The notes beneath the pieces are model-generated. The model was not told the origin of the DNA. It saw nothing but the letters and a program-made list of their open reading frames with translations, and ran no database searches. Below are positions 1 through 219 of a DNA stretch of 219 bases, piece after piece. Location of the stretch: NCBI RefSeq assembly GCF_003334785.1, contig NZ_QOWV01000095.1, one strand, 5' to 3'. Within the stretch, counting starts at the first letter, position 1, and each line of letters starts with the position of its first letter. Made by a program: the position numbers and the translations under genes. Origin of the DNA: Escherichia coli (GTDB lineage: Bacteria > Pseudomonadota > Gammaproteobacteria > Enterobacterales > Enterobacteriaceae).

Positions 1-34
1 TAGGCCGGATAAGGCGTTCACGCCGCATCCGGCA
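1..34 (-). repeat. REP element, Y-like (GCCGGATG type), copy 1; left end possibly truncated by the window edge
   Basis: Reverse complement of 1-33 reads gccggatgcggcgtgaacgccttatccggccta, the classic E. coli REP sequence. Imperfect palindrome with outer arms gccggat (4-10) and atccggc (27-33). Confidence 0.9.
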
Positions 35-47
35 GTCGTGCGCAGAT

Positions 48-83
48 GCCTGATGCGACGCTAACGCGTCTTATCAGGCCTAC
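48..83 (+). repeat. REP element, Z-like (GCCTGATG type), copy 1
   Basis: Plus strand reads gcctgatgcgacgctaacgcgtcttatcaggcctac. Imperfect palindrome with arms gcctgat (48-54) and atcaggc (73-79) and inner arms acgc/gcgt, ending in the REP-typical ggcctac tail (77-83). Confidence 0.9.
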
Positions 84-100
84 AAATTCCCGCGCCATCC

Positions 101-135
101 GTAGGCCGGATAAGGCGTTCACGCCGCATCCGGCA
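101..135 (-). repeat. REP element, Y-like, copy 2 (complete, including the terminal G at 101)
   Basis: Identical to copy 1 shifted by 101 bp. Reverse complement of 101-134 reads gccggatgcggcgtgaacgccttatccggcctac. Confidence 0.9.
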
Positions 136-148
136 GTCGTGCGCAGAT

Positions 149-184
149 GCCTGATGCGACGCTAACGCGTCTTATCAGGCCTAC
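149..184 (+). repeat. REP element, Z-like, copy 2
   Basis: Identical to 48-83 shifted by 101 bp. Confidence 0.9.
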
Positions 185-201
185 AAATTCCCGCGCCATC
201 C

Positions 202-219
202 GTAGGCCGGATAAGGCGT
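202..219 (-). repeat. REP element, Y-like, copy 3, partial (truncated by the window end)
   Basis: gtaggccggataaggcgt matches the first 18 bases of the copy at 101-135; the window ends before the palindrome is complete. Confidence 0.8.

Follow-up and report, generated by a model that had tools for sequence, protein, structure and literature searches.

A REP31-type BIME-2 array between mhpE and mhpT of Escherichia coli and the variation of its copy number between strains

The stretch of Escherichia coli DNA analysed here (219 nt in its full length, hereafter the window) is, as judged from its sequence and genomic matches, near certain to be the inside of a REP31-type BIME-2 array located between mhpE and mhpT. 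The type of array, the annotation of the locus as REP31 and the family are all already known, and the element is an ordinary one; BIME-2 arrays have been described since 1991. It therefore carries little weight as a discovery, and only its copy number, which varies widely from strain to strain, is notable. Our best explanation overall, to which we assign a probability of roughly 0.6, combines the identity of the array with REP31, the turnover of its units, an action of its transcript through RNA hairpins, and a role of its DNA as a gyrase and rearrangement site.

Tandem Repeats Finder described positions 1-219 as a single tandem array with a period of 101, 2.2 copies, 100% matches, 0 indels and a score of 438, which corresponds to a 101-nt unit repeated perfectly, head to tail, 2.17 times. 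A repeat search of the window gave the same picture, with positions 1-101 and 102-202 identical at 100% and positions 1-17 recurring at 102-118 and 203-219; the 118 consecutive positions that match between the copies are far above chance expectation. Read from the sequence, the unit consists of a Y REP, a 12-nt linker, a Z2 REP and a 17-nt linker. The REPs form inverted-repeat pairs, in which the heads of Y and Z2 face each other over 12 nt and the tail of Z2 is joined to the tail of the next Y over 17 nt, and two complete Y REPs and a partial third one fall within the window. Y REP copy 1 has its consensus orientation, TGCCGGATG...GGCCTAC, on the minus strand, and the plus strand reads (G)TAGG first; its first G is lost at the window edge, and G101 together with positions 1-34 gives the full 35 nt. 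The preliminary description of this DNA had reported a 101-bp Y/Z unit repeated head to tail more than twice, which is confirmed by these data. Its two REPs and 17-nt linker also stand, whereas its 13-nt linker is 12 nt here, because the REP edge was drawn 1 nt differently. The features of the window are as follows.

Positions 1-219, minus strand: inner part of the REP31 BIME-2 array that lies in the mhpE-mhpT spacer, placed by perfect genome matches between the minus-strand genes mhpT and mhpE.
Positions 1-34, minus strand: Y REP copy 1, aligned with the first (Y) hairpin of the naRNA4 family in Rfam; the hairpin has a 2x2 internal mismatch and an energy of -20.9/-21.3 kcal/mol.
Positions 35-46, no strand: head-to-head linker GTCGTGCGCAGA, short S-type, 12 nt, read from the sequence; equivalent to linker 'l' of the naRNA4 model.
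Positions 47-83, plus strand: Z2 REP copy 1, TGCCTGATGCGACGCTAACGCGTCTTATCAGGCCTAC, 37 nt, aligned with the second (Z2) naRNA4 hairpin; -21.4/-21.9 kcal/mol.
Positions 84-100, no strand: 17-nt tail-to-tail linker AAATTCCCGCGCCATCC, whose plus strand is C-rich; the same 17-mer is found in REP325 of O157:H7.
Positions 101-135, minus strand: Y REP copy 2, complete with GTAG, 35 nt, from the tandem repeat and the naRNA4 alignment.
Positions 136-147, no strand: head-to-head linker copy 2, from the tandem repeat.
Positions 148-184, plus strand: Z2 REP copy 2, from the tandem repeat and the naRNA4 alignment.
Positions 185-201, no strand: tail-to-tail linker copy 2, from the tandem repeat.
Positions 202-219, minus strand: first 18 nt of Y REP copy 3, cut by the window end, from the tandem repeat and a partial naRNA4 match at 205-219.

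The assignment of the second REP to Z2 rather than Z1 was made partly on the Bachellier consensus of Z2, with 37 nt and a GCGACGC...GCGTC inner stem. Every REP of the window carries GTAGGCC..., in line with the REP hallmark of a conserved GTAG located 5' of an imperfect palindrome with a stem mismatch (PMC3333891). BIME-2 elements are defined by Y and Z2 REPs, a short linker S and tandem copies that are conserved within a locus and vary in number between strains (PMC3333891). Correspondingly, in the mhp array Y and Z2 REPs alternate in inverted orientation, the linker is short, the copies stand in tandem at an extragenic position between same-strand mhp genes, and the copy number is variable. 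Every sequence-level feature of BIME-2 that could be tested was thus found, which supports the array type proposed in the preliminary description.

The Rfam family naRNA4 (RF02564; gathering score 59.5) matched positions 3-80 and 104-181, scoring 85 bits for the plus strand and 62.7 for the minus strand, and the window and the Y-linker-Z2 covariance model of this family aligned end to end. The weaker minus-strand match represents the sense RNA, because the flanking genes lie on the minus strand. The naRNA4 model was built from REP325, the yjdM-yjdN array of naRNA1-6, whose 77-nt unit is made of a Y and a Z2 motif around a linker and whose 'U' spacers, which join the units, are identical (PMC4550694). 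Like the mhp array, REP325 is a tandem of Y, short linker, Z2 and tail-to-tail spacer with a period of 100-101 nt, and each of the two arrays lies between two same-strand genes. The units of REP325 in MG1655 (100-nt period) are 89-90% identical to the window unit, the 'U' spacer of MG1655, AAATTCCCGCACCCTCC, is close to the 17-nt linker of the mhp array, and the 17-nt tail-to-tail linker of REP325 in O157:H7 is identical to it. In contrast, the head-to-head linker of the mhp array (GTCGTGCGCAGA) differs from that of REP325 (AACGGTGCCGAC). Moreover, the mhp array is inverted relative to transcription when compared with REP325, its sense RNA being the complement of the naRNA orientation. The copy number of REP325 also varies, with 2.6 units in O157:H7 (1426-1690 of the extracted locus) and 6 in MG1655 (643-1299).

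Of the 5,426 E. coli genomes, 4,997 contained the tail-to-tail junction, the median number of places being 2. Among species-representative genomes it was found only in Escherichia sp. E1V33, by an exact match that is too strict for other genera, and it occurs at three loci in that strain. Contig NZ_RHJI01000028 of E1V33 stops inside the array just downstream of mhpE (11080-11147 of the extracted locus), a typical repeat assembly break, and the two other loci carry the same linker variant at 724-750 and 361-387 of the extracted loci.

Tandem Y and Z2 REPs are also shared with the BIME-2 elements at sucC-sucB and tldD-yhdP, which are reportedly gyrase targets (Espeli & Boccard 1997; Sutormin et al. 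2019). BIME-1 elements (RIP/RIB elements) consist of Y and Z1 with a long L linker containing an IHF site. They resemble the mhp array in having an inverted REP pair that includes Y, but they differ from it in their Z1, long L linker with an IHF site and single copy, as against the long Z2, 12-nt linker and multiple copies of the mhp array. The IHF consensus WATCAANNNNTTR had no match on either strand of the window, and BIME-1 was excluded on the grounds of this result, the lack of a long linker and the multi-copy state. Other Rfam matches, to plant and animal miRNA models, were far below their thresholds and were regarded as chance matches to hairpins. RRS elements (222-bp repeats) were rejected as a different kind of repeat at other chromosomal positions, from which BIME-2 is treated separately (PMC11194060).

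A megablast search of the window against 5,426 complete E. coli genomes detected relatives in all of them, at a median of 32 places per genome, and an exact 219-nt match in only two, the laboratory strain XL10-Gold and the Norwegian pig isolate 2015-01-466. In both genomes the match lies between mhpT and mhpE, two genes that occupy the minus strand when the window is read as plus, and the mhpE-mhpT spacer is also the site of the best near-matches, in K-12-type strains, F'128-type plasmids and MG1655. The locus was found between mhpE and mhpT in every genome examined. Its neighbours are mhpE, mhpT, yaiL and fghA. The mhpABCDFE catabolic operon ends with mhpE, and mhpT encodes the substrate transporter. 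The first REP lies ~47 nt past the stop codon (TAA) of mhpE, and the last REP ends 93 nt before the start codon of mhpT. The operon has been taken as mhpABCDFE, with mhpT outside it (PMC5553809), and the MG1655 array is listed as REP31 (374931-375366, 'Tandem', mhpE/mhpT; supplement of bioRxiv 10.64898/2026.03.23.713779).

The preliminary description had also placed both ends of the window inside the array. This is not visible from the window itself and was seen in the matching genomes, where it holds in two of two: the array spans 2901-3344 of the extracted locus in the pig isolate and 2800-3344 in XL10-Gold, with the window at 3001-3219 in both. Inspection of the flanks and counting of the units, as suggested there, gave mhpE and mhpT on the two sides and an array of 444 bp (4.4 units, 9 REPs) in the pig isolate and 545 bp (5.4 units, 11 REPs) in XL10-Gold, and the unit proved to be related to sequence in all 5,426 E. 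coli genomes. The findings that would have spoken for another kind of repeat, transposon ends or a coding region, did not appear, the flanks being mhpE and mhpT and the ORFs of the array reaching at most 41 aa. In MG1655 the array likewise has 4.4 units and 9 REPs, in a spacer of 577 bp.

The length of the array was taken as the span of each match to the two joined unique flanks, in 58 genomes sampled evenly down the ranking, with the following distribution.

Single Y REP: 31 of 58 genomes, the commonest state.
Y-Z2 pair: 1 of 58 genomes.
1.4 units: 8 of 58 genomes.
2.4 units: 2 of 58 genomes.
3.4 units: 4 of 58 genomes.
4.4 units: 12 of 58 genomes.

The long alleles in this sample cluster where the flanks are closest to K-12. 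In the joined-flank search of E. coli, ~500 genomes were without the mhp region altogether, in agreement with its reported absence from most phylogroup B2 strains (PMC11728103). Over all alleles found in E. coli, the array ranges from 0.4 to 7.4 units, that is, from 1 to 15 REPs and from about 35 bp to 747 bp. Alleles with 1, 2, 3, 5, 7, 9, 11, 13 and 15 REPs have identical flanks and differ nearly always by whole 101-nt steps, and at least one REP is kept at the site in every mhp-positive genome examined. Comparison of these alleles demonstrates, at the level of sequence, that the array grows and shrinks almost wholly by whole units, which appear to be kept alike by recombination or gene conversion.

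The longest allele found is that of strain DLI.5a, with 7.4 units and 15 REPs in an 880-bp spacer (308-1187 of the extracted locus), and strain D8 carries 6.4 units and 13 REPs (308-1088 of the extracted locus). The unit variants of DLI.5a follow the order 3-SNP, 0, 1, 3-SNP, 0, which looks like a duplicated three-unit block. When an artificial 8-unit query was used, its coverage was misleading because pieces were joined over short subject stretches, and only two long places were usable. An odd allele was observed in strain N3 (808-1021 of the extracted locus), which has Y, linker and Z2 only and in which the right-hand unique flank (TGGGATGGG...) follows immediately on the Z2 tail (...TATCAGGCC), pointing to a deletion off the unit boundaries.

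Instability of the array is seen even among laboratory K-12 lineages. REP31 of MG1655 has the locus, flanks and unit architecture of the window, but the best placement of the window on it has 3 mismatches, because unit 2 of MG1655 differs from the window unit at 3 SNPs (MG1655 374700-375600), and the window is not the MG1655 allele. In the mouse-gut-evolved K-12 strain PG20180062 (2808-3384 of the extracted locus), one of these three SNPs is gone and two are left, and in XL10-Gold (2707-3384 of the extracted locus) all three are gone and there is one extra unit (11 vs 9 REPs). These differences suggest that conversion or unequal exchange is still going on, or else that the XL10-Gold assembly contains an artefact. 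To match the window, an array must have two internal units that are identical and, after them, the beginning of a further Y REP, and both the identity of the window's copies and the rarity of this state, found in 2 of 5,426 complete genomes, can be attributed to unit turnover.

RNA and single-stranded DNA folding indicated that each REP alone forms a stable imperfect hairpin with a conserved internal mismatch, at -20.9 to -21.9 kcal/mol as RNA (z = -5.2 to -6.6 against shuffles) and -11.3 to -12.9 kcal/mol as single-stranded DNA. For the RNA fold of the whole window, the z scores against shuffled sequences were -10.2 on the minus strand and -7.3 on the plus strand. In the minimum-energy fold of the minus-strand window RNA (-131 kcal/mol), the Y REP is paired with the neighbouring Z2 in a long imperfect duplex, so that local hairpins and long-range pairing would compete in the transcript or in single-stranded DNA.

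Judged by analogy alone with REP325, its close paralogue in a comparable tandem-gene setting, the array most likely acts at the RNA level at the mhp locus. During mhp transcription, RNA polymerase would pass from mhpE into the array shortly after the stop codon, and in the array RNA one hairpin after another would form, each at about -21 kcal/mol. These hairpins would be expected to block 3'-to-5' exonucleases and thereby stabilize the upstream mhpABCDFE mRNA, and also to pause or partly terminate transcription, with less read-through into mhpT as a result. Indeed, REP325 has been reported to stabilize the mRNA of yjdM, the gene upstream, and to reduce transcription that continues into yjdN, the latter partly via Rho and only with the full array (bioRxiv 10.64898/2026.03.23.713779). 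An intrinsic terminator scan found none in the array, its sole match being inside mhpT. No sigma-70 promoter was recognized in the array or in the 93-nt spacer before mhpT, and because of this result for the spacer mhpT may partly depend on read-through. Translation control by REPs, which reportedly needs a REP within ~15 nt of the upstream stop codon (Liang, Rudd & Deutscher 2015), was rejected here, as the first REP lies well beyond this distance from the mhpE TAA.

Read from the sequence, the mhp sense RNA has G-rich linkers (C7/G11 per unit) and the antisense RNA C-rich ones, and with G-rich linkers the sense RNA would be a poor Rho substrate. An in vitro NusG-dependent Rho-binding fragment has been listed at MG1655 375401-375492, minus strand, 35 nt from REP31 (supplement of bioRxiv 10.64898/2026.03.23.713779). 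This fragment is antisense to the 5' UTR of mhpT, and its strand corresponds to the plus orientation of the window. The fragment and the C-rich plus-strand linkers hint that the array could terminate antisense transcription better than sense transcription.

A bolder extension, which we think has only a slim chance of being right, is that the copy number of 1-15 REPs serves as an evolvable dial that would grade both the read-through from mhpABCDFE into mhpT and the stability of the operon mRNA. If so, the fast gain, loss and homogenization of units would provide a quick route to regulatory variation, and weak Rho dependence of the sense RNA together with strong antisense termination would be expected. 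The dial idea is directly testable with the natural series of 1 to 15 REPs. With its identical flanks, this allelic series could also put the current dual terminator/stabilizer model of REP function to the test in another operon, with the array oriented the other way.

Against an effect of copy number on mhp expression, the array could be essentially neutral, selfish or hitch-hiking, and be shaped by unequal crossing-over, slippage or the REP-associated transposase TnpA_REP (RAYT). The ladder of 1-15 REPs between identical flanks, with a single REP as the commonest state, and the changes among laboratory K-12 derivatives are what such a history would leave. In addition, TnpA_REP can cut BIME substrates in vitro and recombine them, and strain-to-strain variation in copy number at one locus is typical of BIME-2 (PMC3333891). 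The presence of a single REP in more than half of the sampled genomes implies that the multi-copy state is dispensable, and this state may be near-neutral. However, the closely similar REP325 measurably affects both of its neighbouring genes, and a REP is retained in every mhp-positive genome examined. We consider neutrality a possible but rather unlikely account. As an account of origin it is compatible with our best explanation, and it is a rival to it on function only.

Alternatively, the array might work mainly at the DNA level, as a cluster of strong, transcription-independent gyrase sites or as a topological insulator between the supercoiling domain of the induced mhp operon and mhpT with the DNA downstream. 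The Y REPs of the array, of which the window holds two complete copies and part of a third, are indeed expected to be gyrase binding and cleavage sites, as also included in our best explanation. Gyrase cleaves the Y REPs of a subset of BIME-2 elements in vivo, independently of transcription; its sites are over-represented in BIME-2 with a preference for Y REPs, and blocking transcription increases the signal (PMC6379681). Family-wide, BIME-2 elements also tend to lie at supercoiling borders, with 70-77% of their sites between supercoiling regions, and an inserted BIME-2 stops the diffusion of supercoils (PMC11194060). However, cleavage affects only a subset of BIME-2 elements, mhpE and mhpT are not named in the text or the text-form supplement of the gyrase Topo-seq study, and most strains have just one Y REP at the locus. 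A mainly DNA-level function is improbable in our view. The mhpE-mhpT REP array has also been reported as a rearrangement hotspot that takes part in ~20% of the lac-amplification and rearrangement junctions listed (PMC3161906).

A further proposal is that the array produces nucleoid-condensing naRNA4-like RNAs, which would bind HU and bridge cruciform DNA according to the model originally put forward in PMC4550694. The naRNA4 scores of the window are above the gathering score on both strands, but the stronger match (85 bits) is antisense to the mhp genes. Moreover, a 2026 preprint, one of whose authors also took part in the original study, reported that nucleoid size is unaffected by deletion or overexpression of REP325, that a stable HU-DNA-RNA complex was not found and that Hi-C showed no contacts between REPs (bioRxiv 10.64898/2026.03.23.713779). 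The nucleoid-condensing role is thus largely refuted for the founding member, REP325, and is very improbable for the mhp array.

Scarcely any credence is left for the array as part of a coding repeat, an inverted-repeat-bounded transposon, a CRISPR or a phage element, since its period of 101 is not a multiple of 3 and its short ORFs restart in each unit, its flanks are conserved housekeeping genes and a transposase is absent, its would-be CRISPR 'spacers' are identical and whole 101-nt units are the same with both linkers included, and phage records have only single 35-nt REPs in common with it. A REPtron, in which REPs flank tnpA_REP/RAYT, was likewise rejected, there being no transposase within 3 kb of the array, as was a plasmid origin, the plasmid matches being F' plasmids with a chromosomal mhp segment or other E. 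coli replicons. The one annotation in favour of a coding repeat comes from strain HS-01 (NZ_CP172817.1 364988-365230), where a 'hypothetical protein' is annotated over the window match. This gene call is probably spurious, because the ORFs of the array are only 34-41 aa long and restart in each unit. In practice, the array interrupts short-read assemblies and is liable to be annotated wrongly as a gene. Two Campylobacter phage records (MG065686.1, 110192-110226; MG065691.1, 63897-63931) were also seen to hold a perfect 35-nt E. coli Y REP, which is surprising in phages of this host and may reflect contamination or chimeric assembly.
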